Of a DNA stretch of 64,000 nucleotides, positions 5,514 through 58,965 are shown in pieces. Positions within the stretch are counted from its first letter, which is position 1. Every line of letters begins with the position of its first letter. A program made the translations under genes and the position numbers. The stretch is from assembly GCA_963717145.1 (NCBI GenBank), contig OY970325.1, positions 3,104,001 through 3,168,000 of the forward strand, written 5' to 3'. The notes beneath the pieces were generated by a model, which was given only the letters and a program-made list of their open reading frames with translations, was not told the DNA's origin and did no database searches. Source of the stretch: an uncultured Armatimonadetes bacterium. GTDB lineage: Bacteria > Armatimonadota > UBA5829 > DTJY01.

Positions 5514-5663
5514 ATGATATGGACCATATTCGTGATCCTGGTCATCCTTTGGCTGCTCGGCTTCCTCGGGCATGTCGGCGGAAACCTGATTCACATTCTA
5601 CTGGTCGTTGCGCTGATCGTAGTGATATACAATCTGCTGACCGGTAGGAGAGGCGGATCTTGA
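5514..5663 (+). CDS. lmo0937/DUF5670-like 49-aa membrane protein (absent from ORF track)
   Basis: AAGGAGGT RBS; MIWTIFVILVILWLLGFLGHVGGNLIHILLVVALIVVIYNLLTGRRGGS*. Confidence 0.8.
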   Translation: MIWTIFVILVILWLLGFLGHVGGNLIHILLVVALIVVIYNLLTGRRGGS

Positions 5664-5704
5664 GAGCCTCTGACATCAACTCACCAGGAAAAGAGGTTAT
5701 AGCG

Positions 5705-6223
5705 ATGTTACGATATGCCAACCGTGGCCCGATTGGGCTCAGAGCGATTCTGCCGGTTCTGGGGCTGTTGTCGCTCGCATTGTCGATGGTGATGCTAACG
5801 GGCTGCGCAAAGCAGTCGTCCGAGGCAACTGCGGAGATGCGCGACATCATCGCGTATCTCCCGGCCGAGGGAACGGTCGTCGCCCCGGCGTCGGCTCGGG
5901 CGGACATCTATTCCCCTTACACCGTGCCCGTGGACAAGATAAACGTGACCGTGGGGAAGAGCGTCCGCCGTGGGGAGGTGCTGATCGTCTTCTCCGCCCC
6001 GCAGAACGAGGCGTACTACGACCAGGCGACCGCGACGCTTGCTGCGGCCAAGAAGTCGCTGGATCACGCCCGCAGTCAGTTCAGCCAGGAACTCAAGGCC
6101 GCCCAGAAGCAGCTCGCGTTGTCCCGCTCGACCGAGAGGAAGGCAAAGGCGACTCCCCCGGACGATCCCTATGCTGACACCGGCGTACCATCAGCGAACC
6201 GCAGGCCGACGAACAGGCGGTGA
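5705..6223 (+). CDS. Efflux RND/MFP periplasmic adaptor lipoprotein, N-terminal part (frameshift ~6180-6200)
   Basis: Lipobox LTGC; VDKINVTVGKSVRRGEVL lipoyl half-motif; continues in the 6220 frame. Confidence 0.75.
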   Translation: MLRYANRGPIGLRAILPVLGLLSLALSMVMLTGCAKQSSEATAEMRDIIAYLPAEGTVVAPASARADIYSPYTVPVDKINVTVGKSVRRGEVLIVFSAPQNEAYYDQATATLAAAKKSLDHARSQFSQELKAAQKQLALSRSTERKAKATPPDDPYADTGVPSANRRPTNRR

Positions 6224-6861
6224 TCGACGCTCAGGCCAGGATGGCCGAAGGAATGGTCCCGTACCAGCAGGCCGTGGTTGCGGCCCAGGAGCAGTTCGAT
6301 GCGGCAAAGGCCGGCAGCAAGTCCGCACAGGTCACATCACCGATCACCGGCACAGTTCTCGCGGTGAACGTCACCGTGGGGCAGACGCCCAATCCGGAGC
6401 ACAAGAAGCCGCTGGTTACGGTGGTGAACCTGGAGGCTCTGAAGGTCGCGGCCGGAGTCGCGGAAGACCAACTGAGCCTGCTCAAGCCGAAGAACCCGGC
6501 CCTCGTGACGATCAAGGAAGTGCCGAACGTGGAGTTCGCCGGTTCGCTGGATGAGATCTACTCGGAGAAGGCCGGCTTCCTGCGTGGGAAGAAGTACGTG
6601 GCCCTCATGGACTTCAGAAACACCAACGGCCAGGCGAAACCGGGCATGGAGGCGACGGTCTCGATCAAGATCGGCGAGGTACACGATGTGCTTGCCGTGC
6701 CCGCCAACGCGGTGTACGAGGTGGACAAGCAGTACGCGGTCAAGCTGAAGAATGGCAAGGAATGGGCTCAGACGATCGTCGAGATCGGCCTGAGCGACGG
6801 CGAGTACACGCAGATCAAGTCAGGCATCAAAGAGGGCGACATAGTGAAGACCAACCCGTGA
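6220..6861 (+). CDS. Efflux RND/MFP periplasmic adaptor, C-terminal part
   Basis: VTSPITGTVLAVNV, AKPGMEATV, LAVPANAV, EIGLSDGEYTQIKSGIKEGD. Confidence 0.78.
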   Translation: MIDAQARMAEGMVPYQQAVVAAQEQFDAAKAGSKSAQVTSPITGTVLAVNVTVGQTPNPEHKKPLVTVVNLEALKVAAGVAEDQLSLLKPKNPALVTIKEVPNVEFAGSLDEIYSEKAGFLRGKKYVALMDFRNTNGQAKPGMEATVSIKIGEVHDVLAVPANAVYEVDKQYAVKLKNGKEWAQTIVEIGLSDGEYTQIKSGIKEGDIVKTNP

Positions 6862-7065: not shown

Positions 7066-7734
7066 CTACGCCGCGATCGTAGCCGTCTCCAGCTCACCCC
7101 ACTGGCCCGCCTCGCGCTTGCCGTAGAGCCACCGCATCTTGTAATGCGCCTGCTTGTTGCCGTCCTCCGGTAGGAAGGTCACGACGAACGGCCGCGGGGA
7201 AGCCAGTCCGACGTAGCGCATTTCGCTGACATCGGCGGGGGCCGTGCCGACCTTGACCCAGACCTCCGCGCCGGTCGCGCCCTCGGGCATCGCCTTGGTC
7301 GTGCCGCTCTCACCCTGGTTCTCGACCCGGAGCGTATGCCTCAGAAGCCCCCGGATGTCGATCAGGGCCGACGGCCTGTCGGGCAATGCTTCGACATCGA
7401 GGGCCATCTGCCCGGCGCCGCGCGCGGGGATCTCCAATGCCTCGCGGTCCTGGCTCGTCGTCGCGGGATTCGCCTGAATGCGCCCGATGAGCTGTCTGGC
7501 GAGCTGCTCCGCGGTCGCGCGCTTCACCTGCTTGTCGGCGGATGCGACCTTCGCGGCGTTGCGCGCCTCATCGAAGGCGACGCGCGCGGCACTGAACTCA
7601 GGCTCGGCGGTGGACAGCGGGATAAGATCGGCCGCCACCAGGCCGAAGTGCGCCAGGTTCGCGCCCACGTAGGTGGTAACGCGGCTGATCCAGAGCTGGA
7701 ACGCCACGTCGTTGGCTGGAACATAATCACCCAT
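7066..7734 (-). CDS. Hypothetical protein (helical N-domain, Ig/Fn3-like C-domain)
   Basis: AAGGAGG RBS; MGDYVPANDVAFQLW...; C-terminal YKMRWLYGKREAGQWGE. Confidence 0.7.
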   Translation of the reverse strand: MGDYVPANDVAFQLWISRVTTYVGANLAHFGLVAADLIPLSTAEPEFSAARVAFDEARNAAKVASADKQVKRATAEQLARQLIGRIQANPATTSQDREALEIPARGAGQMALDVEALPDRPSALIDIRGLLRHTLRVENQGESGTTKAMPEGATGAEVWVKVGTAPADVSEMRYVGLASPRPFVVTFLPEDGNKQAHYKMRWLYGKREAGQWGELETATIAA

Positions 7735-8002
7735 GATCATGTCCTCCTTGTTTGAATAGGCCGCCGGCCACCGATTCGGCAGGATCAGCCCGAGATGTGG
7801 CGGCAGACCGATGGTCTGCTCGCTGGTACCATTATCGGTAAGCGGTTTTCGAATCTCTAGCCAAACAGTGCGAGTTGTGGAACAATGATGTATGAATATT
7901 GCCACTCCTCCGACGAGGAGACGCCTTATTCCTTACCTGGCAGAGACTGGCATGCATATGGGCGTACAAGGGGAAGGCGCGCTCCCGGACGACGTTCCGA
8001 GG

Positions 8003-8167
8003 CTCGCAGGTGTCACCTCCGGGCCCGGAGTCGAGGCCCCGGAACTCGCAGGTGTCACCTCCGGGCCCGGAGTCGTCGTCCCGGAACTCGCAGGCCTCAC
8101 CTCCGGCCACGGAGTCGTCGCCCCGGAACTCGCAGGCGTCACCTCCGGCCCTGGAGTCGTCGCCCCT
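8003..8167. repeat. Four tandem 42-bp repeats (CTCGCAGGTGTCACCTCCGGGCCCGGAGTCGTCGCCCCGGAA-like)
   Basis: Four contiguous, slightly diverged units with an internal CTCCGG..CCGGAG palindrome; no unique spacers. Confidence 0.85.
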
Positions 8168-8293
8168 GCCCGCTTGAGGCATGCCGCCGAAGGGACAGAT
8201 CAGTAGTTGACAGCCCTCAGGGCATCCTGATAGACTGCCCGTGTAAGCCGATCCACAATAAGCACCACTACCGCCCACCGCTGAGGCACAGAG

Positions 8294-10771
8294 ATGACAG
8301 AGACGTTCGAGTACGACGTATTCCTGAGCCATAGCTCGAAGGACAAGTCGGTTGTGCGCAAGCTTGCCAAGCGGCTGAAGAAGGACGGACTGCGCGTCTG
8401 GTTCGACGAATGGGAGATCAAGCCAGGGGACCCTATCTCCCTGAAGATCGAGCAGGGACTGGAGCGGTCGCGCACGCTCATCCTGTGCATGTCGAAGAAC
8501 GCCTTCGCGTCGGAGTGGGTTACCCTCGAGCGCCACACCACCCTGTTCCGCGATCCCGCGAACGCCGATCGCCGATTCATCCCCCTGCGTCTCGATGATT
8601 CCGAGATCAGAGAGACGCTCAGGCAGTTCGCATATATGGACTGGCGGGAGGAGTCGGAAGAACAGTATGCGCGGTTGCTGGCGGCGTGCAAACCCGCATC
8701 GTCCGAGATTGTGCCTTCAGCCCGAGAAGGGGAAGAATCCGCGCCATCTAGAGTCCTTCTGGGTCATACCAAGGCTCTGAACTGCGTGGTCGTCACGCCG
8801 GACGGTCGAACAGCGGTCTCCGGCTCCGATGACAAGACCGTCCGGGTGTGGGATCTCGAGGCAGGTAGGCTCACCGCCACCCTGGAGGGACATACCGGCG
8901 AGGTATGGGGAGTAGCCGTGACCCCGGACGGACGGCTCGCGGTCTCCGGCTCTTATGACAACACCGTCCGGGTGTGGGATCTTGAGGCAGGCAGGCTTGC
9001 CGCCACCCTGAAGGGGCATACCCGCGCGGTATGGGGCATGGCCGTGACGCCGGACGGTCGAACAGCGATCTCCGGCTCTGTGGACAAGACCGTCCGGGTG
9101 TGGGATCTCGAGGCAGGCAGGCTCACCGCCACCCTGGAGGGGCATACCGACCGGGTATACGGTGTGGCCATGACGCCGGACGGTCGAACAGCGGTCTCCG
9201 GCTCTAGCGACGACACCGTCAGGGGCTGGGATCTCGAGGCAGGCAGGCTTACCACCACCCTGAAGGGGCATACCGAGCGGGTGTGGGGTGTGGCAGTGAC
9301 GCCGGACGGTCGAACAGCGGTCTCCGGCTCTGTGGACAAGACCGTCCGGGTGTGGGATCTCGAGGCAGGCAGGCTCACCGCCACCCTGGAGGGGCATACC
9401 GGCGCGGTATACGGTGTGGCCGTGACTCCGGACGGTCGAACGGCGGTCTCCGGCTCCACCGACGAAACCGTTCGGGTGTGGGATCTCGAAGCGGGCAGGC
9501 TCATCGCCACCCTGGAGGGACATACCGGCGCGGTATACGGTGTGGCCGTGACTCCGGACGGTCGAACAGCGGTCTCCGGCTCCACCGACGACACCGTCCG
9601 GGTGTGGGACCTGCCGCCCATGGGCACGGCACCCACGCAGGAAGCCGATACCCCGCGCTACACCAACGCTAAGGTGCTGCTTGTAGGCGAAAGCGGCGTA
9701 GGCAAAACGGCGTTGTCAATCCGACTCACGGAGAACAGGTTCGAACCCGCAACCAGTTCGACGGATGCAGTGAGGGCGAAGCGCCCTGACTGGGCAACGC
9801 AGCTGAAGCTACCGGGGGGTGATGCGAGAACTGGGATCGAGCGCGAGATCTGGCTCTGGGATTTCGCGGGGCAGGCGGACTACAGGCTCATCCACCAGCT
9901 CTACATGGACGAAACGGCACTTGCGGTACTTGTCTTCAACCCGCAGAGCGAGAACCCGTTCGAGGGCTTGGGCCAATGGGACCGCGACCTACGGCGTGCC
10001 GCGCGGAGATCATTCGGGAAGCTGTTAGTCGCAGGCAGGTGTGATCGCGGCGCTCTTATGGTCAGCCGAGAAAGCGTTGAGCGCTTCCAGACCGACAGAG
10101 GATTCGCCGATTACATCGAAACCAGCGCACTGCGCGGCACCGGCTGCGACCGACTCCGGCAGGCAATCGTCGACCATATTCCATGGAATGATATCCCATG
10201 GACAGCCTCGCCGCGGATCTTCCGCCTGCTTAAGGAAGAGATCGTTAGGCTGAAGGACGAAGGCAAAGCACTCCTGAGAATGGCAGAGCTGAGGCAACAA
10301 CTCGAAATGCGTCTGCCGCGAGAGGTTTTCACGCCAGAGCAGTTGCGCGCCGTCGCGGGCCTGCTTGCCGGACCCGGCGTTGTCTGGCAACTGGAGTTCG
10401 GCGACTTCGTACTCCTCCAGCCCGAGCGCATTAACTCCTACGCGGCCGCCGTCATCCGATCCGTCCGCGCCCACACAGAAGAGATCGGCTGTATAGCCGA
10501 AGAGGATGTGCTGGCCGGACGGCTCGACTACCAGGATGTGGACCGACTCCCCCCAGAGGAAGAGCAGATCGTGCTACGAGCGATGCACCAGACCTTTGTG
10601 GACCACGGGTTATGCCTGCGCGAGCACACCGATCAGGGCACACTTCTTATCTTCCCGAGCTACTTCAAGAGGGAGCGGCCGGAGTTGGTGGGGCATCCTG
10701 CCGAGTTTGTGACCTACCAGTTCAACGGAGCACTCGACGAGATCTACTACTCTGGTCGTCAGACTCCATAG
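8294..10771 (+). CDS. TIR-WD40(x7)-Roc GTPase-COR protein (prokaryotic Roco), N-terminal part
   Basis: TIR YDVFLSHSSKDK...VWFDEWEIKPGD...SEWVTLE; seven GH...WD repeats; P-loop GESGVGKT; WDFAGQ. Confidence 0.9.
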   Translation: MTETFEYDVFLSHSSKDKSVVRKLAKRLKKDGLRVWFDEWEIKPGDPISLKIEQGLERSRTLILCMSKNAFASEWVTLERHTTLFRDPANADRRFIPLRLDDSEIRETLRQFAYMDWREESEEQYARLLAACKPASSEIVPSAREGEESAPSRVLLGHTKALNCVVVTPDGRTAVSGSDDKTVRVWDLEAGRLTATLEGHTGEVWGVAVTPDGRLAVSGSYDNTVRVWDLEAGRLAATLKGHTRAVWGMAVTPDGRTAISGSVDKTVRVWDLEAGRLTATLEGHTDRVYGVAMTPDGRTAVSGSSDDTVRGWDLEAGRLTTTLKGHTERVWGVAVTPDGRTAVSGSVDKTVRVWDLEAGRLTATLEGHTGAVYGVAVTPDGRTAVSGSTDETVRVWDLEAGRLIATLEGHTGAVYGVAVTPDGRTAVSGSTDDTVRVWDLPPMGTAPTQEADTPRYTNAKVLLVGESGVGKTALSIRLTENRFEPATSSTDAVRAKRPDWATQLKLPGGDARTGIEREIWLWDFAGQADYRLIHQLYMDETALAVLVFNPQSENPFEGLGQWDRDLRRAARRSFGKLLVAGRCDRGALMVSRESVERFQTDRGFADYIETSALRGTGCDRLRQAIVDHIPWNDIPWTASPRIFRLLKEEIVRLKDEGKALLRMAELRQQLEMRLPREVFTPEQLRAVAGLLAGPGVVWQLEFGDFVLLQPERINSYAAAVIRSVRAHTEEIGCIAEEDVLAGRLDYQDVDRLPPEEEQIVLRAMHQTFVDHGLCLREHTDQGTLLIFPSYFKRERPELVGHPAEFVTYQFNGALDEIYYSGRQTP
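8756..9612 (+). repeat. Seven near-identical 126-bp WD40 coding repeats
   Basis: Recurrent ACGCCGGACGGTCGAACAGCGGTCTCCGGCTC and ACCGTCCGGGTGTGGGATCTCGAGGCAGGCAGGCTCACCGCCACCCTG at 126-bp period. Confidence 0.9.
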
Positions 10772-10775
10772 CACA

Positions 10776-11633
10776 TTGGCTTTCGAGCGTGACCAGCTCT
10801 GGCACTTTGCCGCGGATATGAGAACGCAGGACGACAAACGCCTTGGCTTCAAGATGAGCAAGAAGGCCGAAGGTGCTGCGGAACTCGCCGTGTATTTCGA
10901 TCCAGGCATCTCGGATGACACCAAGGTTACGTTCATCAAGTATGTACACGAGCATCTGCTTGAGAGGGCCCACGATGTCGTTCGCCTCCGACATTACGTC
11001 TGCCCAAACTGCCACAAGGCTGTGAAGGATAGTGAAGCCGCCTGGGAGCGGCTGAACAGCGGCAAGAAGGACATTCTGTGCGTCAACTGCGAGAAGCGCG
11101 TGCCCTTATGGGATTTGATCGAGAAGAAGTTCGCTTCGGAGGAGTCCCAGCGAAAGGTACGTAGGTTGGAGGAGGAGGCTAAGAGGGCAACCGACAATGA
11201 GAGCCTCGAACTGATCCTGGTAGGACATGCGTTCTCGATCGCCGGAGAGGCAGGGCAGATCTTCAGGCCCACTCCGAACTCCGACTGGGGTATCGACGGC
11301 GAAATCGAGTTCAAGGATTACGATGGGAAGGCGAGTGGACAACGGGTTTACCTCCAGCTGAAGTCGGGCGACTCATACCTACGCCAGCTTCGCCGTGACG
11401 GCACGGAAGTCTTCACAATCAATAAGCCGCGGCACGCCGATTACTGGCAGAAGCAGGCCTACCCCGTGATGCTGGTCGTCCGTACCTCCGACGGAAGAAT
11501 CCGCTGGATGAACGTGACCGAACGCCTGGAGAGTCTGGGGGCCTACACAAAGCAGATCGAATTCGACGGCGAGCCGTTCACGGCGCTGAACCTCCAGCGG
11601 ATGCGGGACAAGCTCGTCGGCCTGCCGGGGTAG
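10776..11633 (+). CDS. C-terminal part of the Roco protein: COR end, Zn-ribbon, DUF4365-like PD-(D/E)XK domain
   Basis: Frame is open upstream (TTLVVRLHSTLAFER); CPNC...CVNC; DWGIDGEIEF...YLQLKS. Confidence 0.8.
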   Translation: MAFERDQLWHFAADMRTQDDKRLGFKMSKKAEGAAELAVYFDPGISDDTKVTFIKYVHEHLLERAHDVVRLRHYVCPNCHKAVKDSEAAWERLNSGKKDILCVNCEKRVPLWDLIEKKFASEESQRKVRRLEEEAKRATDNESLELILVGHAFSIAGEAGQIFRPTPNSDWGIDGEIEFKDYDGKASGQRVYLQLKSGDSYLRQLRRDGTEVFTINKPRHADYWQKQAYPVMLVVRTSDGRIRWMNVTERLESLGAYTKQIEFDGEPFTALNLQRMRDKLVGLPG

Positions 11634-13325: not shown

Positions 13326-14501
13326 GTGTCTGTGACATCCAAGATCAGCAAACCGTCGCTAAGAAGATTCGACTTCGAGGCCCTTGTGAGGATCGGCCCG
13401 CTGGAGACAGTGAGGCGCGGACGACTGTACTACGCCCAGGGGCGCGCCACGGTCGAACATGCGGATGATGAGAAAGCCACCATCCAGGTCGACGGCAGTC
13501 AGGAGTACCCCTATGAGGTGAACGTCTGGCTGGATGATCTCTATCCCGAGCGGCGGGTCCATGCGCAATGCGATTGCCCGCACGCAGAGAATCAGCCCGG
13601 AGTGATGTGCAAGCACAAGGTCGCCGGCTTCCTCGCGCTGTACCACTACTACCGGACCCAGCGCAAGGTGCACTGGGCGGACATGATGCAGAGAGTCCTG
13701 GAGGCCGCCGAGATACCTCAGAAGAGCCGCGCCGAAAGCATCGTGTTCTTCAACCTGCTCAATTGGGGAGGCCGCTACCAGATACACCCCTACATGCTGC
13801 CGGTGAAATCCTTCACCGATGCGGCCATCGGCGACAGGGATGCGATGGCCGCCGAGATCCTCCGTATGGGTCTGGGAAGGAAAGCCCGCCGCGTACAGGG
13901 CACGCGAGGGCTTGGGAAGGCCGTATCGGCATCACCCGGCGAGATCGCCGCCGCCGGGATGCTGGCGGATTCGTGGCGGTATTATTCCGACATGTCGCTG
14001 AATGTCGTGCTGCCATTGCTCACGGACAGTATCGTCCTCACCGGGAACCACAATGCGGAGTTGAAGAAACAGGTGAGAGTCTCCACCGCTCCGGAACACC
14101 TCGATCTGGAGATCCAACGCCAGGACGGCGACCTGAAGATGATCGCATCGCTGTCATTCCAGGGCGCAAAACTCCCGTTGACTTCCATACGGCCGCAGAT
14201 CATCGAGAAGTCGCCGATGTGGTTGCTGACCGAATCGACGGTCTTCCCGGTGGAGGGCGAGTTCGCGCTCGTCGAGACGTTCCTCAAGCACCCGGAGATC
14301 GTCATCCCGGAGGCCGATGCGGACAGGTTCGTCGACGAGTACCTGCTTCCGATTGTGGAGCGTGTGTCCGTCAAGCTGGACGGCGTCGGCGAATGGCGGG
14401 ACGTCAGTGCGGAGCGGTCCCCGAGTATACTTGAAGGAGTCTCAAGGCGAGTTGGGGGCCGAGCTTCGGTTCGGCTACGACACATTCGAGGCGACGTTTG
14501 A
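13326..14501 (+). CDS. SWIM zinc-finger N-terminal part of an SNF2 helicase (frameshift ~14415-14425)
   Basis: RGRLYYAQG, CDCP...CKH SWIM motif; joins the downstream frame PRVYLKE. Confidence 0.8.
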   Translation: MSVTSKISKPSLRRFDFEALVRIGPLETVRRGRLYYAQGRATVEHADDEKATIQVDGSQEYPYEVNVWLDDLYPERRVHAQCDCPHAENQPGVMCKHKVAGFLALYHYYRTQRKVHWADMMQRVLEAAEIPQKSRAESIVFFNLLNWGGRYQIHPYMLPVKSFTDAAIGDRDAMAAEILRMGLGRKARRVQGTRGLGKAVSASPGEIAAAGMLADSWRYYSDMSLNVVLPLLTDSIVLTGNHNAELKKQVRVSTAPEHLDLEIQRQDGDLKMIASLSFQGAKLPLTSIRPQIIEKSPMWLLTESTVFPVEGEFALVETFLKHPEIVIPEADADRFVDEYLLPIVERVSVKLDGVGEWRDVSAERSPSILEGVSRRVGGRASVRLRHIRGDV

Positions 14502-16530
14502 CGAATCGCTCCCCAAGCTCAGCTTCGGTCGCGGCTCGGAGATGCTCGAGTTGTTCCGAGTACACCGGGATCCGGACGCCGAGCGCCAGGCATGGAAAGC
14601 GCTGTCCTCACATGGCCTGAAGCGCTCACTCGATGGCCGGACCTTTGTCTTGCGGCAGAACGTGAGCGCGGTCGACTTCCTGATACATCGCGTGCCGGCG
14701 CTCTCGATGGCGGGCTACGAAGTGTATGGCGAGGAGGACCTGAAGTCCGTGCGGGTGAACCGCAACCGGCCGAAGGTCTCGCTCTCGGTCTCGTCGGGGA
14801 TAGACTGGTTCGACGTGCAGGCGGTGGTAAGCTTCGGCGACCTGGAGGTCCCGATGGCGGCGCTACGTCGGGCGGTGAAGAAGCGCGAGAAGTACATCAA
14901 GCTCGCGGACGGGTCGATAGGCGAGGTCCCGGAGGAGTGGGCCCGGCAGTACCGGCATCTCTTCGAACTCGCCGGTGAGTCGGAGGGCGGCGTCCGGCTC
15001 ACGAAGTCCCAGGTCATGCTGCTCGATCAGGCTCTCTCGGAGGCGGATTCCGCCGAGGTCGACGAGGAGTTCGAGCGCCAACGTTCGAGGCTCAAGGATT
15101 TCGCGCAGATCGAGTCGAAGCCGCTGCCGGATGGTCTCTGCGGCGAACTGAGACACTACCAGAAAGCCGGCTACGACTGGCTGCATTTCCTGCACGAGTT
15201 CGAGTTCGGCGGCTGTCTGGCCGACGACATGGGGATCGGGAAGACGGTTCAGGCGCTCACCCTCCTGCAGTCACTGCGGGAGAGCGGCCATGCGAAGTCA
15301 GCCGACCTGATCGTGATGCCGCGATCGCTCCTGACGAACTGGGAGCGGGAGGCGGCCAGGTTTGCGCCGAGCCTCAAGGTCCACATGTACGCCAACCTCG
15401 ACCGGATACGCGATGTCTCGGAGTTCGAGAGATACGACCTGGTGCTGACGACATATGGCCTGATGCGCCGCGACATCGACATCCTGAGCAAGTACCGCTT
15501 CCACTTCGTGGTGCTAGATGAATCGCAGGCGGTGAAGAATCCTCTGTGCCAGACCGCGAGGGCGGCTCGCATGCTCGAGTGCGACCATCGGCTCGTGTTG
15601 ACGGGAACGCCGGTGGAGAACTCGACGACCGAGCTTTGGTCGCAGTTCGCATTTCTGAACCCCGGCATGCTCGGCTCGCTCGACTACTTCAAGAGGGAGT
15701 TCGTGAACCCGATCGAGCGCCATCAGGACGACGAGACCGCGCGATGTCTTCGTTCGCTGGTGTATCCGTTCATCCTGCGCCGAACCAAGAGCCAGGTCGC
15801 CCCCGAACTCCCGGCACGGACCGAGCGGATCGTCTACTGCGACATGGACCCGGTCCAGCAGAGGACTTACGACCGGCGGAGGGACGAGTATCGCGCCCTG
15901 CTCCTCGGAATGATCGACAGCGGAGGAATGAATAACGCGCGGATGAAGATCCTGGAGGGGCTGCTCCGCCTGCGCCAGATATGCGACCATCCGGTGCTGG
16001 CGGACAAGAGTTATAGGGGCGAGTCGGCGAAGATCGAGGTCCTAATGGAGACGCTGGAGACGCTCCGAGCGGAGAACCACAAGGCGCTGGTGTTCTCGCA
16101 GTTCACGCAGATGCTCAAGCTGATCAGGAACGACCTGGATATGCGCGGCATCCCCTACCTCTACCTCGATGGGAAGACGAAGGACCGCCAGGCGTTGGTC
16201 GACCGATTCCAGCAGGACGCGGAGATCCCGTTCTTCCTGATCAGCCTGAAAGCCGGCGGCGTGGGACTGAACCTGACGGCGGCGGATTACGTGATACACG
16301 TGGACCCATGGTGGAATCCGGCGGTCGAGGCTCAGGCGAGCGACCGGACCCACCGCATCGGCCAGGAGAACCCCGTCTTCATCCACAAGCTGATCGCGCG
16401 CGGCACGGTCGAGCAGAAGATGATCGAGCTTCAGGACCGGAAGCGCGACCTCGTGGACAAGCTGATCAGCACCGAAGGCAGCTTCTTCAAGTCGCTCACT
16501 GCCGAGGACGTCCGCGATCTGTTCAGCTAG
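14317..16530 (+). CDS. SNF2/SWI2-family DEAD/DEAH helicase (C-terminal part)
   Basis: LRHYQKAG, GCLADDMGIGKTVQ, VLDESQAVKN, LTGTPVEN, FSQF, ISLKAGGVGLNLTAAD, DPWWNP, QASDRTHRIGQ. Confidence 0.93.
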   Translation: MRTGSSTSTCFRLWSVCPSSWTASANGGTSVRSGPRVYLKESQGELGAELRFGYDTFEATFDESLPKLSFGRGSEMLELFRVHRDPDAERQAWKALSSHGLKRSLDGRTFVLRQNVSAVDFLIHRVPALSMAGYEVYGEEDLKSVRVNRNRPKVSLSVSSGIDWFDVQAVVSFGDLEVPMAALRRAVKKREKYIKLADGSIGEVPEEWARQYRHLFELAGESEGGVRLTKSQVMLLDQALSEADSAEVDEEFERQRSRLKDFAQIESKPLPDGLCGELRHYQKAGYDWLHFLHEFEFGGCLADDMGIGKTVQALTLLQSLRESGHAKSADLIVMPRSLLTNWEREAARFAPSLKVHMYANLDRIRDVSEFERYDLVLTTYGLMRRDIDILSKYRFHFVVLDESQAVKNPLCQTARAARMLECDHRLVLTGTPVENSTTELWSQFAFLNPGMLGSLDYFKREFVNPIERHQDDETARCLRSLVYPFILRRTKSQVAPELPARTERIVYCDMDPVQQRTYDRRRDEYRALLLGMIDSGGMNNARMKILEGLLRLRQICDHPVLADKSYRGESAKIEVLMETLETLRAENHKALVFSQFTQMLKLIRNDLDMRGIPYLYLDGKTKDRQALVDRFQQDAEIPFFLISLKAGGVGLNLTAADYVIHVDPWWNPAVEAQASDRTHRIGQENPVFIHKLIARGTVEQKMIELQDRKRDLVDKLISTEGSFFKSLTAEDVRDLFS

Positions 16531-19500
16531 TCCCCGTAGGGCGAACCGCGAAGAGCCGCGTCTGGCCGGGATCGAAGGGGCAGTCGATCTCCTGCCCTGA
16601 GCCCTCCCAACCATCGAAGAGGTCGCGGATGGTGACTGGCGTCGGCCACGCGAGCTTCACGCTTCCGGCTTTCGGACTCGTGACGCTGACGAGTTCGCGG
16701 GAAGAGTAGACGCAGTATTCCTGCGGCGCGTAGAAGTGAACTCCCGCCTCCTGTGCCCATTGCCGGATCAACGCGGTCGAATGAGGCGGAATCCCACACC
16801 AGATCAGCCGCCCGCCGTTCGCGAGAGGCCGCTCCGCGCCGGCGGACTTCCCGTCGGAGTAGCGGAGGAATCCCTCGCCCTCGATGAAGGCGCGCGGTCG
16901 GACCGTGGCGTCGGTGTCGGTGATGGGCGTGCCGTCGGTCAGGGTCATTCGGGCGGGCAAGGAGGCGTCCTCGATCTGGATCGGGAGGCCGAGGAGACCG
17001 GATACCGCGTCCGGCTGCCATACGCCCTGGACGGGATTGACCAGTCCGGGAGCGCCGACGACAATGATCGTGCGCCCGCCCTTCTCGATCAGCCGCTCGA
17101 GCCGGGCGATGTCCTCGGGCTTCGCGGCGGTGGCACAGGCGATCACGACGAGCTTGATCCGCTCGGGCAGGCGATCGAGGTCCGAGAGCAGCCACACACC
17201 GACCGGAGCGCCGGTCCGCCCGCAATGGAAGAGCAACTGCGTGTTCGTCCAGCGCAGGTACTCCGACTCGGGGCATGACCAGGCGAACGTCGGGCCGTCG
17301 ACGACGAACGCGATCTCCTCGGTCGGCGTCCGGTCGTACTTCAGAGCCTCACCCGCGACCCGGATCTGGCGCGCGAAGTCGGCCTGCAGACCGGCGTCGT
17401 GATGCCAGCTCGGCATGAGGGAGAACCACTCGTTCCCCGCACCGTGGACCGCGTTGTTGGCGGTCTCGCGCCTCTGCATCTGGATCGCGCCGTTCTGCGG
17501 ATTGCCCGGGTCGTACTCCCGATACCAGTGGAGCGGATGAAGCCACGAGAAGAGATCGTTGCTGTCACAGTAGATCTTGCCCGCCGCGAGGACGCTCTCG
17601 GTCGCCGAGATGTAGACGCTGTAACCGTTGAGGAAGTCGCGGAAGTTGTGCAGGGGGACGCCGCCGATCACATCGACGTTCGGATCGGCGAGCACCTTCT
17701 CGACCGCGAAGTTCCCGCCGATCGGGCCGCGGAACTCGCCGGCGAGCTGGATGACGTAGCCGAAGAAGACGGCGTTGATCGAGCGCCCGCCGGTCTCCTC
17801 CTTCGACACCTTCGCGAGCCGGCAGATCGTTTCCGAGGTGAGGTCGGCGTAGTATTGGTTGTATGCCGCTGCCATCTTTCGCTCAGGCGGGTAGAAGTCG
17901 TAGCCGGGACAACTGCGCTCCGAGGGAGGCGGGATCGGTGCGCCGAAGCGGTCCTCGTTCGGCTGACTGTAGTCGCCGAACAGCTTGTCGTTGCTGCCCC
18001 ACGCGAACCACTCCGACGTAACCTCGCCCATCAGCCACATTCCGAGCAGGCGGCTCGCCCACGGTTGGGCCTTGCAGTACCGGAGGAGCTTCCGCAGCTC
18101 GAGTTCCTGGTCGCGATACCACTCCTCGGAGGCGATCGATCCGGCACGGTTGCCGATTCCCTCTTCCCAGATGAGGCCGTTGATGCGGACGAGCTGATCC
18201 TCGTGGGTCTGATCCCAGATCGGTGGGAGGCGGAGGTTGATCGCGAGGAAGATCATAGCGTCGGGGTTGGCGGCGAATGCGCTTGCGACCTGCTCATCGA
18301 CCGAGCCGTAGTCGTAGACGCCGGGCCTGGGACAGTAGCGCCCGAGGTCGCACTGGATGGTGAGCACGCTCGCGCCCGATCGGCCGAAGTCGGCGGCGTT
18401 GCCGGGTTGGAAGTCGGGGGACTGGTAGCCGGTCCATGGGAATGGCTTGCCATTGACGAATAGCGTCGGCCGGCCATGATACATCCGCCGCTCGACGCGC
18501 GGGAGTTCGTTGGCGACGGATTGTGTAGTGGCCGTGCCTCCGTGCCGGCCAAATCCGCCATCGCATGTAGTGGCCGTGCCTCCGTGCCGGCTAACCACGT
18601 CGCTGGCCGGCACGGAGGCACGGCCACTACATGCGATCTCGACCTCGGCCTCCGGTCCATCGGCGCGGTATCCGTCGGCCACCAACCCGACCGTCGCGGG
18701 ACCGGGCGCGAGGTAGAATGGGACCGTCCGCTTCACCCGGCATCGGCCCTTCGCCAGATCGTCGATCTCCCCCGGAGTTAACCGGATGCGCCACACGACC
18801 CACGGCTCCCGCCGCACCTCCAGGTCGATCACCCGACCACCCGGCTGTAGGGGCGTGCCTTGTGCCGCCTGCGACGGCGTACCGGGCGGTGCAAGGCACG
18901 CCCCTACGGCGTGAGAATCCACATCCGGCGGCACAAGGCACGCCCCTACAGCGTCGATGGCGAATTCGGCCTTCTGCCCCGGATGGAGGATCGGCGGACA
19001 CCTCAGCTTGGTCACCTGGAGGCCGGGTGCGGGCGGGTAGTGGTATGTGCAATCGTTGAGGAAAAGCTCGTAGTCCGCATCCTTCTCGAGACCCTGGATG
19101 GAGAGCCGCATCACACCGGGATACCTGGGCGTCGGCGGCTCGGTACGGTCGGGCCAGCGCGCATCGGCGAACCGGAACTCGACCGTGCGCTCGGTCATCG
19201 GCTCGACCTTCTGCGGCTCACCGAGCACCCACTCCACCGCCTGATTCGCGGATCCCGGATGCCAGGGGAACTCCGCATACTGCGCCTTGACGAGGACCGA
19301 CTTGGCGGAGTTGTTGCGCACCCGGAAAGAGAGGCTGGTCGGCTCACGACGGATCAGCGGGCACTCGGCACTGAGGGATGCCGTGTCCGTGCCATTCGAC
19401 CTGATCCGCCAGCGCGTGCTCCATCCGCCACTCCGCCTCACGAGCGACATCTCGTTCACGGCGAACATCGACGCCCGCTCGAAGACGCCTTCGCCCGGCG

Positions 19501-19642
19501 AGCAGGCCCGCATCTCGAAGGTCGGGAGCCGGTCCACCATCGACCGGGAGTATGCATCGTCAGGGTATGTGGTCATCGCCGATTCCCCCTGGATACCAAG
19601 CAGGCATAGAAGCGCCACCAGCACGATCCGGTTCTTGTGCAC
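16523..19642 (-). CDS. Secreted glycoside-hydrolase-like protein (beta-galactosidase/GH42-like TIM barrel) with two in-frame REP insertions
   Basis: GGAGGAGG RBS and signal peptide; GRPTLFVNGKP, GEVTSEWFAWG, GDYSQPN; C-terminal trimerization-like region. Confidence 0.65.
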   Translation of the reverse strand: MHKNRIVLVALLCLLGIQGESAMTTYPDDAYSRSMVDRLPTFEMRACSPGEGVFERASMFAVNEMSLVRRSGGWSTRWRIRSNGTDTASLSAECPLIRREPTSLSFRVRNNSAKSVLVKAQYAEFPWHPGSANQAVEWVLGEPQKVEPMTERTVEFRFADARWPDRTEPPTPRYPGVMRLSIQGLEKDADYELFLNDCTYHYPPAPGLQVTKLRCPPILHPGQKAEFAIDAVGACLVPPDVDSHAVGACLAPPGTPSQAAQGTPLQPGGRVIDLEVRREPWVVWRIRLTPGEIDDLAKGRCRVKRTVPFYLAPGPATVGLVADGYRADGPEAEVEIACSGRASVPASDVVSRHGGTATTCDGGFGRHGGTATTQSVANELPRVERRMYHGRPTLFVNGKPFPWTGYQSPDFQPGNAADFGRSGASVLTIQCDLGRYCPRPGVYDYGSVDEQVASAFAANPDAMIFLAINLRLPPIWDQTHEDQLVRINGLIWEEGIGNRAGSIASEEWYRDQELELRKLLRYCKAQPWASRLLGMWLMGEVTSEWFAWGSNDKLFGDYSQPNEDRFGAPIPPPSERSCPGYDFYPPERKMAAAYNQYYADLTSETICRLAKVSKEETGGRSINAVFFGYVIQLAGEFRGPIGGNFAVEKVLADPNVDVIGGVPLHNFRDFLNGYSVYISATESVLAAGKIYCDSNDLFSWLHPLHWYREYDPGNPQNGAIQMQRRETANNAVHGAGNEWFSLMPSWHHDAGLQADFARQIRVAGEALKYDRTPTEEIAFVVDGPTFAWSCPESEYLRWTNTQLLFHCGRTGAPVGVWLLSDLDRLPERIKLVVIACATAAKPEDIARLERLIEKGGRTIIVVGAPGLVNPVQGVWQPDAVSGLLGLPIQIEDASLPARMTLTDGTPITDTDATVRPRAFIEGEGFLRYSDGKSAGAERPLANGGRLIWCGIPPHSTALIRQWAQEAGVHFYAPQEYCVYSSRELVSVTSPKAGSVKLAWPTPVTIRDLFDGWEGSGQEIDCPFDPGQTRLFAVRPTGTS
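18524..18631. repeat. GTAG-type REP triplet (GTAGTGGCCGTGCCTCCGTGCCGGC) inside a CDS
   Basis: Two direct units plus one inverted unit; 108 bp. Confidence 0.85.
18846..18950. repeat. GTAG-type REP triplet (GTAGGGGCGTGCCTTGTGCCGCC) inside a CDS
   Basis: One forward and two inverted units; 105 bp. Confidence 0.85.
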
Positions 19643-19759
19643 AATTCGGTCCTCCTCCGTTTCGGCCAGTATAGAGGATAAGCGCGCGCGTATCAACCGG
19701 GAGGATACGGAGGGTCACCGGCGGAACAGTGAGATGACCGATGACGAAATGGAGAGCAT

Positions 19760-24232: not shown

Positions 24233-25708
24233 GTAACAGTTCAGGCTTGTGGATCATTTTGCGAGAGCAGTGAGAGTTTTTCCGACATTGTCGGCTTGCA
24301 ATAGGAAGGACCCTTGGCCGGGCGGGTGGAACATGCCTGTGTGGAAGAGTTCGACGGTCTGACAAGAGAAGAATTGGTGGGCATTGTCCTGGAGCAGCGG
24401 GAGATGATCCAGCGTCTCGTCAAGGAACTGGAGGATCTCAAGGCAAAGCTCTCGGGTGGCGGCAGTTCCACCCCCATACCTGACTGGGTCAAGCCGAACC
24501 GCAAAGAGCGCCGGGCAGCCGAACGAAAGAAGCGCCAGAAGTCGTTCGTGCGCAGGCGGGAGACACCCACCCGTGTAGTCGAGCACGCGCACTCGAAGTG
24601 TCCGGACTGCGGCCGAGCGCTCACAGGGGGCACGGTAAAGAGACTCCGCCAAGTCATCGACATCCCCATCGTGCCTGTGGACGTAGTCGAGCACAGGTTC
24701 ATCGCCAGAAGATGCGGATACTGTGGCAAGAGTCATGTGCCGAAGGTTGACCTTTCCGGCCAGGTTGTAGGCAAGCATCGGGTAGGCGTGAACCTGATGA
24801 GCCTGATATCGTATCTTTCGACGGTAGGTCGCATGACAAAGCGGACGATACAGGGATTGCTGAAGGCTCTGTATGGTCTTCAGCTCTCTGTGGGAGAGAT
24901 AAGCGAGATATTGCACACGGTGGCAGACTGTGGCAAAAAAGAGAAAGAGCGGCTACTCTCGCTTGTACGTGGAAGCCCATACATAAACGCAGACGAGACG
25001 GGCTGGAGAGAGGATGGGCTGAACGGATACATCTGGACCTTCTCCACTAAGAACGTGCGATACTTCATCTACCGGCGGAGTCGGAGTGGAGAGATCCCGA
25101 AGGAAACGATAGGCGGCGACTACGAAGGGGTAGTGGTAACGGATTGCTATGCCGGATACAACCCGGTAGTTGCAGACCGCCAGATATGCTGGGCACATCT
25201 GGCCAGGGATCTGCACAAACTGAAGGAGAGGAACGCGGACGACACGGGCGTCATCGCATGGGCGGATGCGGTGAAGGGTGTTTACGATCGGGCAAAGGAG
25301 TTCCGGAGCAAGAAGGCGGAGGTTCGCAAGTGGAAGCGAGTACTCTTCGAGGAAGAGGTAGAGGCGCTCTCAGGTCCGTATGTCGGCTCAGATGCTCCAC
25401 AGCAGACGCTGGCAAAGAGATTCATAGATCGCTTGCACGAGTTGTTCATGTTCGTAGAGTACCCGGAAGTACCGTCGGACAACAATGGCGCAGAACGAGC
25501 GCTGAGGCCGTGTGTGATCGCCCGCAAGGTATGCGGAGGCACACGAAGCGCGAAGGGTTCCGAGACAAAGATGACGCTCATGAGTCTGTTTGGCACATGG
25601 CACGTCAGGGGTCTGGACATGCTCGAATCATGCAGGCAACTGCTCGCAGGCAAGTCTGTCCTCTTCCCTGCCTGATCAAACTCGTTATCCCCAAGCGTGA
25701 ACTGTTAC
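24233..25708 (+). mobile_element. IS66-family insertion sequence, single-ORF type
   Basis: IRs GTAACAGTTCAGGCTTG / CAAGCGTGAACTGTTAC; 8-bp TSD CCCTGACG at 24225-24232 and 25709-25716. Confidence 0.93.
24314..25675 (+). CDS. IS66-family transposase
   Basis: Coiled coil, CPDCG...CGYCG zinc finger, NADETGW, TDCYAGY, QICWAHLARD, DNNGAERALRP. Confidence 0.93.
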   Translation: MAGRVEHACVEEFDGLTREELVGIVLEQREMIQRLVKELEDLKAKLSGGGSSTPIPDWVKPNRKERRAAERKKRQKSFVRRRETPTRVVEHAHSKCPDCGRALTGGTVKRLRQVIDIPIVPVDVVEHRFIARRCGYCGKSHVPKVDLSGQVVGKHRVGVNLMSLISYLSTVGRMTKRTIQGLLKALYGLQLSVGEISEILHTVADCGKKEKERLLSLVRGSPYINADETGWREDGLNGYIWTFSTKNVRYFIYRRSRSGEIPKETIGGDYEGVVVTDCYAGYNPVVADRQICWAHLARDLHKLKERNADDTGVIAWADAVKGVYDRAKEFRSKKAEVRKWKRVLFEEEVEALSGPYVGSDAPQQTLAKRFIDRLHELFMFVEYPEVPSDNNGAERALRPCVIARKVCGGTRSAKGSETKMTLMSLFGTWHVRGLDMLESCRQLLAGKSVLFPA

Positions 25709-27156: not shown

Positions 27157-28744
27157 CAGCCTGTCTGAGAATTCCCCGCTATGTGGGTGAGTTTCCCATC
27201 TGCGGGGTCGCGCTGGCTGCTGTTCGATAGTGTTTTTCGCCGGATTTCCGGCGAGGGTCTGTAAAGACCCCTTGTACCTTGATAATCAGCCTGATCCAGG
27301 TCATATATCTACGTATCGAAGATCGATTTCCGGTCGCCGTATCGGTATAGCTTCAGCATGTTGTGCCCAAGACACGCAAGCGTCCACTCCGACTTCGCTT
27401 TCGCAAGGCCTCGGAGTAGGAAGCCTCGGAAGTTCCGTGCGCTCTTGATCTGGCCGAACACCGGCTCTACCGTCTCCTTCCGCCTCCCGTAGATCTTTCG
27501 GCCAAGAGGAGTCAAGAGCTTTGCTCTCTGGCGATCTGCGGCGGATTGCTTTGCCGGATCAAGGCAGGAAGGCGCCGTCGGCTCTTTGCCATGACGTTGT
27601 CTGTCAGGCGGTATATAAGCGTCGATCCCTTGCTGCTCGACCATCTCTATGTTGTCGCTGCTGAAGTATCCGGCATCGGCGGATAGTTCTTCCGGTTTCT
27701 TTCCGGTGTTCTCCTTGATTGCCTCGATCATGTCACTAAGATGCGGTGAGTCCGCTGCCTGGTTCGTGAGATCACACGCCACTACAATCTGATGATCTGC
27801 GTCTACCGCAGCTTGTCCGTTGTATGCCTGCACGAAGGCTTTCTTTGCGTCCTTCATTATCCGGCTTTCCGGGTCTGTGAAGTTCCGCTGTGCCTTCCCT
27901 TCCGGCTCTGTCTTTACGGGCCCCGGCTCTCTGCCGCGAGGCTTCTTCCCGGATGCTTCCTGCTCCGCCTTCTCTTGGGCTCGCATCGCTTCTTCGGCTG
28001 ATGCTCGCTCTTTGGCCTCGCGCTCCAGCGCTTCTTTTGCTTCCCTGATCTTGGCGAGCCGCTTCTCTCTGGTTGCGAGTTCCTCCGGGAGTTCGTCTCC
28101 TCGGCGGTCAAGACCATATTCCGCGTCTTCCTGGTCGTCCACAGAAAGACCCTTCGCAAGGAGCGCCTCGATCTCAGCCTGAAGCTCTTTTTCTTTCTCG
28201 ACCATCCGAGAGTAGCTCATGGCGGAGTGCTTGCTTGCGTTGGCAAGCAGCTTTGTTCCGTCTATGGCTATGTGTTTCATCGACACAAGCCCGGCGCTTG
28301 CGCATAGCCTGAGCACTTGCACAAACAGGTCCGCAAGGGACTTGAGATGCCTCTTCCTGAACTCGCTTATCGTGCGGAAGTCGGGATGATTTCCTGCCGC
28401 AAGCACCCGGAAGGCTACATCTTCATACGTGGCCAGGGAGAGCTTTCGAGATGAATACACTCCCCGGCACAAACCGTAGAATATGATCTTTGTAAGCATT
28501 GCCGGATGGAACGGCGGCGCTCCTCGGGCCTCTTTCTCGTATGAGGCGTATATCGCGGAAAGGTCGAGTCCGTCTACGACATCGCTCACAAAGTATGCGA
28601 GATGTCCTTGGGGAAGCCACTCCGAGATCGACGGCGGCATCAAGAATATCTGGTCGGGTTGATAAGGAAGGTATGGCTTGCTCATACCAGTATTTTACTA
28701 TATATCTGGCACCTTGTGCCAGAGGTTATTTCGTGGACAGGCTG
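27157..28744 (-). mobile_element. IS1182-family insertion sequence, copy 2 (complete, 1588 bp)
   Basis: IRs CAGCCTGTCTGAGAAT / ATTTCGTGGACAGGCTG; CTAG duplicated at 27153-27156 and 28745-28748. Confidence 0.95.
27309..28685 (-). CDS. IS1182-family transposase
   Basis: Full-length 458 aa; matches copy 1 except VVDG/VVDS. Confidence 0.94.
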   Translation of the reverse strand: MSKPYLPYQPDQIFLMPPSISEWLPQGHLAYFVSDVVDGLDLSAIYASYEKEARGAPPFHPAMLTKIIFYGLCRGVYSSRKLSLATYEDVAFRVLAAGNHPDFRTISEFRKRHLKSLADLFVQVLRLCASAGLVSMKHIAIDGTKLLANASKHSAMSYSRMVEKEKELQAEIEALLAKGLSVDDQEDAEYGLDRRGDELPEELATREKRLAKIREAKEALEREAKERASAEEAMRAQEKAEQEASGKKPRGREPGPVKTEPEGKAQRNFTDPESRIMKDAKKAFVQAYNGQAAVDADHQIVVACDLTNQAADSPHLSDMIEAIKENTGKKPEELSADAGYFSSDNIEMVEQQGIDAYIPPDRQRHGKEPTAPSCLDPAKQSAADRQRAKLLTPLGRKIYGRRKETVEPVFGQIKSARNFRGFLLRGLAKAKSEWTLACLGHNMLKLYRYGDRKSIFDT

Positions 28745-40827: not shown

Positions 40828-40882
40828 CGAGTGCTCCCTTTATAAAAAGGTGTTAGGGATCCCAACGCCAACACCTGCCATA

Positions 40883-40980
40883 TGTAGGAGGGATTTGTCG
40901 GGATGGTTTGTGCCCGACAATCCCGATCTGCTCCCATCGGAATTGTCGGGCACAAACCATCCCGACAAATCCCTCCTACA
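40883..40980. repeat. GTAG-type long REP doublet (about 38-bp arms) supplying the AAC(3)-fusion stop
   Basis: TGTAGGAGGGATTTGTCGGGATGGTTTGTGCCCGACAA...TTGTCGGGCACAAACCATCCCGACAAATCCCTCCTACA. Confidence 0.85.
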
Positions 40981-42472: not shown

Positions 42473-42497
42473 ACTCCCATTCTCCCGCTCCACGGCC

Positions 42498-55845: not shown

Positions 55846-56228
55846 GAAAGCTTCTCTTTTCATTGCCGCCGGAAGCGCATTCCCGGCCGCGTCTGTCTTC
55901 GCTTTTTCCGTAGCAATTATCTCACTTCATGGCAGTCTGAGTCAACACGTCGCGTTGTGTCGGGTGCATTTCCGCAGAGTGGGTGCGCCTCTCGATATGC
56001 CGCCAGAGCGGCTACTCGAGGAGATCGGTGTTTGGGTTACCGGGGGAAACCAACCGTCTAGTGTCGAGTAGGTTTCTCTGGAAACCATATCGAGACACGG
56101 TGGCATTGCCACCCACTGAACTCGAATGCACCCCGTTGTGTCTTGGGGCGGTTGCTTGTTTCCGGCTCACCAGCATGATATACTCTCATGTCTCCACTGA
56201 ATCTGCAAGCAGCGTCGAGGTGCAACCT

Positions 56229-58007: not shown

Positions 58008-58037
58008 CCGTGCCGAGGGGTGAGATCGCTGGCATTC

Positions 58038-58958: not shown

Positions 58959-58965
58959 CCGATGC

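Follow-up and report, generated by a model that had tools for sequence, protein, structure and literature searches.

Research on bacterial Roco proteins, now about two decades old, has treated them mainly as structural models of LRRK2, and we know of no physiological role for the ones that serve as LRRK2 models. Here we analyze the gene for a candidate immune protein of this kind, situated at positions 8294–11633 of the forward strand in a 64,000-nt stretch from an uncultured Armatimonadetes bacterium (positions 3,104,001 to 3,168,000 of contig OY970325.1, assembly GCA_963717145.1). This whole stretch is called the window, and coordinates are counted from its first letter. In CtRoco (from C. 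tepidum), M. barkeri Roco2, LRRK1 and LRRK2 a Roc domain is followed by COR-A and COR-B, and the same order was recognized here through fold matches to PDB entries 3dpu, 6hlu, 8r4b, 4wnr, 8e05 and 8fo9. Both groups carry a repeat domain N-terminal to Roc, and LRRK2 also has a WD40 propeller. The window protein differs from them in having WD40 instead of leucine-rich repeats (LRRs) in the sensor position, in its G4 motif, which is [G/A/S]RxD and not NKxD, and in its outputs, a TIR domain and a predicted DREN nuclease where the others have a kinase or nothing.

Prokaryotic systems built on an "AP-GTPase" and COR were predicted to counter invaders by Kaur, Iyer, Burroughs and Aravind in 2021 (PMC8195603); the available portion of that paper describes LRRs at the N-terminus that evolve fast and, at the other end, one of at least 24 different domains, including TIR. 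On that description, the window protein shares with them the Roc-type GTPase and COR switch, the N-terminal position of the repeats and a variable C-terminal effector, but those systems have LRRs and a single C-terminal effector, whereas here the repeats are WD40 and there are two effectors, a TIR at the extreme N-terminus and DREN at the C-terminal end. No LRR family was present among the best 25 of 46 Pfam families for the first part of the gene, whose repeats are WD40. The terms AP-GTPase and DUF4365 were not found in the supplementary text of PMC8195603, Figure 6D of which may list the architecture, and we found no TIR-WD40-Roc-COR-zinc ribbon-DREN architecture in the literature, that same figure being a place where one might be shown. 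The kind of system is therefore already known as a prediction, that of the Roc-COR conflict systems of 2021, and this architecture is apparently new.

Other described systems resemble the window protein in part. Avs and bNACHT proteins cause death of the infected cell through oligomerization of their effectors, and share with the window protein the union of effector, nucleoside triphosphate switch and repeat sensor in one polypeptide from a single gene. The switch is here a Ras-like GTPase with COR, unlike the STAND ATPase of STAND proteins and nucleotide-binding LRR receptors (NLRs). Membership of the STAND class was rejected, as the matches were at the level of the P-loop, over about 25 residues each (AAA_16, E 0.0053; nSTAND3, E 0.28). 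The DREN and TIR modules are common to SPARDA and SPARTA, from which the window protein differs in lacking APAZ, Argonaute and a nucleic-acid guide and in carrying both effectors in one protein, presumably under GTPase control. A SPARDA system was also considered and rejected, since the match to its PADLOC profile Aga_REase is partial and there is no conserved neighbor; the domain is shared and the system is not. Fungal HET-E, HET-D and other NWD proteins likewise have 42-residue WD40 repeats that are nearly identical within a gene and vary at few surface positions (in the present family the repeat number varies, up to 13), but in these eukaryotic allorecognition proteins the repeats are joined to a NACHT ATPase and to an N-terminal death domain, HET or another.

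Domain organization of the Roco gene

The gene is contained in two neighboring open reading frames (ORFs) of the forward strand that lie in different frames, 8294–10771 (825 amino acids, aa) and 10776–11633 (285 aa), the frame of the second being already open from 10713. Over 8294–11633 the encoded order is TIR, seven WD40 repeats, Roc, COR, a four-Cys zinc ribbon and DUF4365/DREN. In the first ORF, Pfam identified TIR_2 (aa 9–129, E 2.9e-32), seven stretches of WD40 (E 3.8e-82) and, at aa 460–628, Roc (PF08477, E 4.9e-19) and Ras (E 6.9e-23); in the second it identified DUF4365 (E 4.6e-20). The motifs SEWVTLE (containing Glu79), GESGVGKT, WDFAGQ, AGRCD at the G4 position, CPNC...CVNC and GIDGEIEF...YLQLK are visible in the translations. 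A sequence-only reading of this DNA, made before the present analysis, had named a TIR domain with a putative catalytic Glu in a WxxxE motif, a seven-blade WD40, a Roc GTPase with GESGVGKT, WDFAGQ and an atypical GRCD at G4, the CPNC/CVNC pairs and a nuclease-like domain with D-x-GID...QLK, and all of these were recovered in their places.

The Roc-COR region

The Roc G domain (9671–10189, aa 460–632) exceeds the PF08477 cut-off of 27 bits with a score of 69.2 bits and contains the G1, G3 and G5 motifs (P-loop GESGVGKT at 9686–9709, WDFAGQ and TSA, respectively). Its G4 motif, GRCD, is atypical: in alignments the AGRCD of the window stands opposite the ANKCD or GNKCD of Rab38 and RabA1a, with Asn replaced by Gly, Lys replaced by Arg, and Asp retained.

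No COR family was found among the Pfam matches of the window protein, and a phmmer search against PDB sequences returned G domains only. The region following Roc was thus examined by structure prediction on a homologue, P0018, of 700 aa, which comprises the last WD40 blade and all that follows it and, over Roc-COR, shares 78% identity with the window protein. Its AlphaFold model, from a 55-row alignment, had a predicted local distance difference test score (pLDDT) of 90.3 and a predicted template modeling score (pTM) of 0.86. With Foldseek it matched the RocCOR of C. tepidum Roco (3dpu_A, E 6.5e-20, 542 alignment columns, template modeling score by target 0.64), followed in the PDB by 6hlu_A (E 9.6e-20), LRRK1 (8e05, E 3.5e-19), LRRK2 (8fo9, E 7.9e-19) and the RocCORdC of M. 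barkeri Roco2 (4wnr, E 3.2e-13). VIA comparisons over model residues ~44–541 gave Z scores of 21.5–24.5 with 315–464 aligned residues for Roco and LRRK structures, among them 4wnr (Z 23.4, 315 of 323 residues) and residues 1326–1920 of LRRK2 (Z 24.5, 464 residues), whereas plain Rab and Ras G domains reached a Z of ~21 over only ~168 residues. The extra 150–300 residues aligned relative to bare G domains correspond to COR-A and COR-B, and model residues ~225–540 match the COR of CtRoco, MbRoco2, LRRK1 and LRRK2. As judged from the modeled fold of this homologue, the window protein, whose own COR is cut by a frame break, is a bona fide Roco protein, and what had been called a COR-like region is a true COR despite the absence of a Pfam match.

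The full-length homologue P0002 (1,119 aa; pLDDT 85.6, pTM 0.79) was also modeled. Its N-terminal half comprises the TIR (residues 7–132), a disordered linker and 28 strands forming seven blades (153–439), and its C-terminal half comprises Roc (453–630), COR (636–900), the zinc ribbon (~900–940), a helix (950–986) and the nuclease domain (990–1113). In the window, COR-A and the start of COR-B occupy 10190–10747 in the frame of the first ORF, as placed by the fold of the homologue model. The last part of COR-B, at 10749–10988, is in the frame of the second ORF and aligns column for column with the homologues (TLVVRLH...LW.FAAD...FI.YVHEHL); in the P0002 model the strands and helix of residues 832–892 form this last part. 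Next are the zinc ribbon with its four conserved Cys (10995–11111; short strands at 894–938 in the P0002 model) and a long helix linking it to the nuclease domain (11112–11222; helix 950–986 in the model).

The TIR and DREN domains

The TIR domain (8294–8692, aa 1–133) has as its nearest solved relatives bacterial TIRs that cleave NAD+, namely the NAD+ hydrolase AbTIR (8g83, E 3.3e-13), 7uxr, 7uwg, PdTIR (3h16) and TcpB. In the alignments to solved structures, W75 and E79 (W75-x3-E79, with the putative catalytic Glu79 encoded at 8528–8530) coincide with the W and E of AbTIR, 7uxr and 7uwg. Among PADLOC and NCBIfam profiles the domain matched the TIR parts of SPARTA, SAVED-TIR, retron-TIR and Thoeris models, with an E of 1.3e-11 for Aga_TIR. 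By fold family and catalytic Glu, this TIR is predicted to be of the NADase type.

The C-terminal domain (11223–11633, including the stop codon) was identified with Pfam, PADLOC and PDB as a DUF4365/DREN domain of the PD-(D/E)XK nuclease type, with the motifs GEAGQ (containing a conserved E), GIDGEIEF and YLQLK. It scores 72.5 bits against a PF14280 cut-off of 24.3 bits, and matches Aga_REase with an E of 4.6e-14 over profile positions 22–125 of 429. It also aligns, with correspondence of D...E and Q-x-K, to PDB chains 9qbq_A (E 1.6e-4) and 9qbp_A (E 8.8e-4), both described as "DUF4365 domain-containing protein". According to the accessible part of a 2025 preprint, DUF4365 is DREN, the PD-(D/E)XK nuclease of SPARDA, which is an inactive monomer in isolation and cuts DNA non-specifically once a filament gathers four copies into a tetramer. 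Both effectors would hence be of a defense type, a predicted NADase TIR and a predicted DREN nuclease. Since TIR and DREN both depend on induced proximity, a switch that controls oligomerization would supply exactly what they need. The genome of the window contains three further DUF4365 matches, near 3292264, 4815629 and 860094, in frames of 829, 687 and 322 aa.

Conservation and variants of the family

A word-indexed search yielded 1,790 proteins with E ≤ 0.001 among 8,000 scored candidates. The 120 matches listed are 69–87% identical to the window protein over Roc-COR, and most of them are proteins of 1,100–1,130 aa with TIR_2, WD40, Roc and DUF4365, annotated in their sources only as "TIR domain-containing protein" or "small GTP-binding protein". 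When P0018 was searched exhaustively against representatives clustered at 50% identity, 1,261 clusters reached E ≤ 1e-30. PADLOC 2.0.0 contains no full-length model of the family.

The architecture was examined in 269 retrieved homologues with domain hidden Markov models built from alignment A1. TIR, Roc, COR, zinc ribbon and DREN occur in that order in a single protein in 140 of them, full-length members being ~1,100 aa; a further 56 have Roc-COR-zinc ribbon-DREN only, many as fragments that start inside a WD40 blade or at the P-loop, and the remainder are shorter pieces or variants. The sequence-only reading had named homologues without the fusion or the catalytic residues as evidence that would speak against it; the fusion is widespread, and the catalytic columns are conserved in 87–100% of homologues. 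The TIR Glu is kept in 157 of 164 homologues and the P-loop Lys in 239 of 247. For the same 247 proteins, the Asp, Gly and Gln of G3 (DxxGQ) are kept in 247, 246 and 246, the Arg and Asp of G4 in 239 and 241, and the Thr, Ser and Ala of G5 in 242, 240 and 242, with G4 in the form [G/A/S]RxD instead of NKxD. The four Cys of the zinc ribbon are present in 225–229 of 229 sequences, and the Asp, Glu, Glu, Gln and Lys of DREN in 213, 203, 208, 203 and 190 of 218.

Variants include double propellers with 11–13 repeats, forms without WD40, and proteins with an additional C-terminal AAA_21/AAA_15 ATPase or HATPase_c, or with an N-terminal receiver domain. In P0140 and P0149 the extra region after DREN is an OLD/AbiEii-like AAA_21/AAA_15 ATPase, which may be a third module or read-through into a neighboring defense gene.

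The WD40 propeller

The seven-bladed propeller (8741–9640), delimited by Pfam, Tandem Repeats Finder (TRF) and the P0002 model and presumed to be the sensor, consists of seven GHT-anchored units of 42 aa; at the DNA level TRF detected a period of 126 nt with 6.5 copies and 85% matches. The corresponding strands of the P0002 model (153–439) have a pLDDT mostly above 90. The seven repeats of the window protein have a repeat-to-repeat identity of 0.81. Across 61 members with at least five detected repeats, the median repeat identity was 0.67 within a protein and 0.51 between proteins, and because the former exceeds the latter we conclude that the repeats are homogenized within genes, that is, by concerted evolution. 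Differences among repeats were not distributed evenly: in the 38 proteins with a within-protein repeat identity of at least 0.6 they cluster at positions 4, 5 and 7 (GHT-x-x-V-x) and 23 and 25 (GS-x-D-x-T), where 49–62% of the repeats deviate from the consensus of their own protein, against at most 26% elsewhere. From the established WD40 structure, we take these five positions to lie in the D-A and B-C loops, on the top face of the propeller. Such variability is as expected of a ligand sensor, which the propeller is presumed to be.

Distribution of the family

The family has one copy in the genome of the window, and was not found in any of 40 genomes drawn from the same taxonomic family or class (E ≤ 1e-20). 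Five of 400 other sampled genomes of the phylum carry it (E ≤ 1e-100); these belong to five different families and their proteins are 50–62% identical, whereas some of the best matches, which reach 87% identity, carry the names of other phyla. With one genome per species, a relative is encoded at 268 loci, 78 of which were kept. They are labeled as Acidobacteriota, Planctomycetota, Cyanobacteriota, Nitrospirota, Chloroflexota, Verrucomicrobiota, Armatimonadota, Bacteroidota, Pseudomonadota and others, including Methanothrix, and many of the carriers are Nostoc, Blastocatellia and Planctomycetota. In a quick maximum-likelihood tree of Roc-COR with 64 rows, the window sequence falls in a starred clade of six with sequences from Acidobacteriota (two), Nitrospirota, Planctomycetota and Thermodesulfobacteriota; seven changes are required to account for the seven rows of Planctomycetota, and Methanothrix sits inside bacterial groups.

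No conserved neighbor was detected among 603 flanking ORFs from 61 loci: the largest cluster occurred in nine loci, and the next-largest ones reflect the synteny of six Nostoc loci. Loci of different phyla showed no similarity of flanking DNA, apart from the probably mis-binned contigs described below, and no larger mobile unit was seen. IMG/VR viral contigs gave seven pattern matches, none of them a relative, and the plasmids of PLSDB gave only three distant Roc-COR relatives (35% identity), on cyanobacterial plasmids. These data are consistent with a stand-alone, single-gene family of patchy distribution whose phyla are mixed in the tree, as might be expected of a mobile gene. Contigs labeled "Heliomicrobium" (Bacillota; loci L036 and L019) share up to 7,962 nt of flank, at 84% identity, with Blastocatellia loci L054, L017 and L022, which suggests that they are mis-binned rather than products of inter-phylum transfer.

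The frame break in COR-B

The two ORFs are separated by a single frame change at position 10748. The first ORF ends in ...LDEIYYSGRQTP at its stop codon, and frame 0 reads ...TTLVVRLHSTLAFERDQLW. In the window, ...GALDEIY in the frame of the first ORF is followed by the orphan base 10748 and then by TLVVRLHSTLAFERDQLW... in the frame of the second, whereas homologues run through the join in a single frame as ...GALDEIY[A/S]TLVVRLHHT.... We compared the site at the DNA level with 12 homologous loci; the search pattern had no match in three, and all nine matched loci have a complete Ala or Ser codon where the window has two bases fewer. Neither part of the gene contains another stop or frame change, and all conserved downstream motifs are intact, in agreement with the earlier proposal that one indel joins the two ORFs.

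Frame breaks also affect other genes of this assembly, a single contig of 5.37 Mb, from whose assembled sequence alone the break was judged. In the window, an HlyD-type adaptor (5660–6861) is in a frame of 227 aa, with orthologues (80–81% identity) in frames of 403–407 aa, and a SWIM-SNF2 helicase (13326–16530) is in a frame of 398 aa, with six relatives in frames of 1,063–1,096 aa. Elsewhere in the genome the rpoB domain is in four pieces, whose open frames measure 897, 236 (this one containing a TGA), 897 and 113 aa. For rpoC the frames are of 257 and 474 aa, dnaE occupies one of 327 aa, and a class-I tRNA synthetase is spread over three frames. A living cell cannot carry such lesions in essential genes, and the assembly must consequently contain many indel errors. 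We had considered that the three split genes cluster at 5.6–16.5 kb, while genes at 28–64 kb mostly have full-length Pfam matches, as an argument for real decay; it was dropped because essential genes elsewhere proved to be broken.

With rpoB, rpoC, dnaE and the tRNA synthetase of the same assembly frame-broken too, the break in the Roco gene is quite likely an assembly artifact, and the gene is probably intact in the organism itself. The window copy would instead be a true pseudogene, without function, if an immune gene that was costly or toxic to its own cell had been inactivated by the loss of two bases in COR-B. There is no homopolymer at the break, which is set among short TAC/TACTC repeats, and transposase genes are found on both sides (7–1287, 24314–25675 and 27309–28685). 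Among 61 homologous loci, 14 are split as well, 43 are single ORFs and four are undecided at one end; some of the splits are in unique sequence, on contigs with short-read-style names (L042, L052 and L054), or have in-frame stops (L031 and L065). Nevertheless, apart from the break neither half of the gene contains a stop, every conserved motif is retained, and the breaks in essential genes of the same assembly cannot be real, so a pseudogene is a minority prospect, though one to be kept in mind. Programmed ribosomal frameshifting at TAC TAC T would decode both ORFs as one protein, in keeping with the conserved position at which a single shift unites the two frames. It was rejected as practically negligible, because at this site the frame is continuous in the nine compared loci and in the aligned full-length homologues; the site also has no recognized slippery heptamer, and frame breaks are common throughout the assembly. 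No "split gene" or "pseudogene" of this genome should be taken at face value.

Proposed function

The sequence-only reading, that of a GTPase-switched, NLR-like sensor with an NADase at one end and a nuclease at the other, is supported by these results in its anatomy and conservation; the immune role, both enzymatic activities and control by GTP are what we infer from them. The protein is moderately likely to be an NLR-like abortive-infection sensor in a single polypeptide, with a Roco GTPase as switch and an NADase and a nuclease as effectors. The resting protein would be auto-inhibited. A phage- or infection-derived ligand would bind the variable face of the WD40 propeller and shift both the nucleotide state of Roc-COR and the oligomeric state mediated by COR. 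Oligomerization, which is conjectural, would then gather the TIR domains, leading to NAD+ hydrolysis, and the DREN domains, leading to cutting of DNA, and the infected cell would halt growth or die. The Roco GTPase would thereby stand in for the usual STAND ATPase. Whether prokaryotic Roco proteins of this kind are, in general, innate immune receptors in which an LRRK2-type Roc-COR couples a hypervariable WD40 to a TIR NADase and a DREN nuclease is, in our judgment, an evenly balanced question.

Several observations weigh against this proposal, in addition to the site of the frame break and the split loci described above. GTP specificity is not assured with a G4 motif that lacks the Asn and Lys of NKxD. 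Roc-COR-DREN is unusually conserved for an immune gene, at 69–87% identity across phyla among the matches listed. The phylum labels come from metagenome bins, which weakens the argument for transfer, and the locus is syntenic within Nostoc and within Pyrinomonadaceae, indicating vertical inheritance there. We found no experiment in the literature on any Roco or LRRK2-like protein in phage defense. Lastly, the sequence-only reading had looked to defense islands for full-length homologues; these homologues exist, but their defense-island context is weak and suggestive at most. In a scan of 136 of the 224 nearest ORFs, from which most Nostoc duplicates and the loci after L057 were left out, 12 neighbors matched PADLOC at E ≤ 1e-10, a count that has no matched control. 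They are a GajA/AriA-like ATPase with mad2, DolB, MzaA with a DRT reverse transcriptase, PDC-S70, an IetA-like protein, two PDC-M51A, two subtilases and GlgB, the subtilases and GlgB being unspecific.

The family might also not be directed against phage at all. It would then be a switch for regulated cell death, kin recognition or developmental signaling in bacteria of social or filamentous habit, comparable to the fungal HET-E/NWD allorecognition proteins, and its TIR may be an adaptor or signal generator instead of depleting NAD+. Homogenized WD40 repeats with few hypervariable positions, a hallmark of the fungal NWD/HET-E proteins, would fit such a switch, but its effectors would then be the same two modules as in short-Argonaute defense systems, with the catalytic Glu of NADase-type TIRs conserved. 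The weak defense-island context points toward a non-phage switch, as does the stable synteny within Nostoc and Pyrinomonadaceae; yet no conserved adjacent partner gene is available to read a TIR-made signal. Many of the carriers are Nostoc, Blastocatellia and Planctomycetota, and Kaur et al. (2021; PMC8195603), in the portion of their paper available, tie such systems to a multicellular habit, although the distribution of the present family is patchy even inside one phylum. On balance we consider a non-phage role unlikely.

For the abortive-infection sensor favored here, the interest lies mainly in the family and not in the possibly mis-assembled copy of the window. It offers a testable function for bacterial Roco proteins, with NAD+ loss, DNA cleavage and phage protection as read-outs, obvious point mutants, and a sensor with five variable positions that can be swapped. 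If the proposal is true, it would provide the first physiological function for bacterial Roco proteins, and GTPase-switched receptors would join ATPase-switched NLRs in prokaryotic immunity. Two effectors known from Argonaute systems would prove to be portable, able to work as modules under another switch, and bacteria would offer a parallel to the fungal WD40 receptors that diversify their repeats. LRRK2 research would gain a system that links ligand, nucleotide state and oligomerization to an easily scored output, and the proposed ROCO receptors of brown algae, as well as animal DAPK and LRRK, would have a prokaryotic immune ancestry.

Surroundings of the gene

Upstream of the Roco gene, a consensus scan placed a promoter-like site at 8207–8236 of the forward strand (TTGACA, an 18-nt spacer and TAGACT, with TG), the start codon being 58 nt downstream; the scan found two sites where 0.8 are expected, which is no evidence of function. 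The intergenic region between the Roco gene and the divergent ORF 7066–7905 (reverse strand) contains, at 8003–8166, a 42-bp tandem repeat of 3.9 copies with 90% matches that is unique in the genome. This divergent ORF (279 aa) and ORF 16523–19696 (reverse strand, 1,057 aa) matched no Pfam family at E ≤ 1e-5.

The three transposase genes that bracket this region comprise two of the DDE_Tnp_1/DUF772 type, with near-identical domain scores, and one of the IS66 family. An ORF of 172 aa (1526–2044), with TPR_10/TPR_12 repeats only, adjoins the first of them and may be the remnant of a larger repeat protein. Further downstream, a GmrSD_N domain (E 9.4e-32), as is characteristic of type IV restriction enzymes, was identified in ORF 55983–58007 (674 aa). 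This ORF showed no C-terminal nuclease domain at E ≤ 1e-5, and the adjacent ORF 58020–59150 has no Pfam match; in view of the errors in the assembly, both ORFs may belong to a single gene. On the reverse strand, 39595–42493 encodes an Antibiotic_NAT protein (aminoglycoside 3-N-acetyltransferase, E 3.7e-55) beside a DegT/DnrJ/EryC1 aminotransferase (E 8.7e-90), a pair that may serve aminosugar modification rather than represent a resistance gene.

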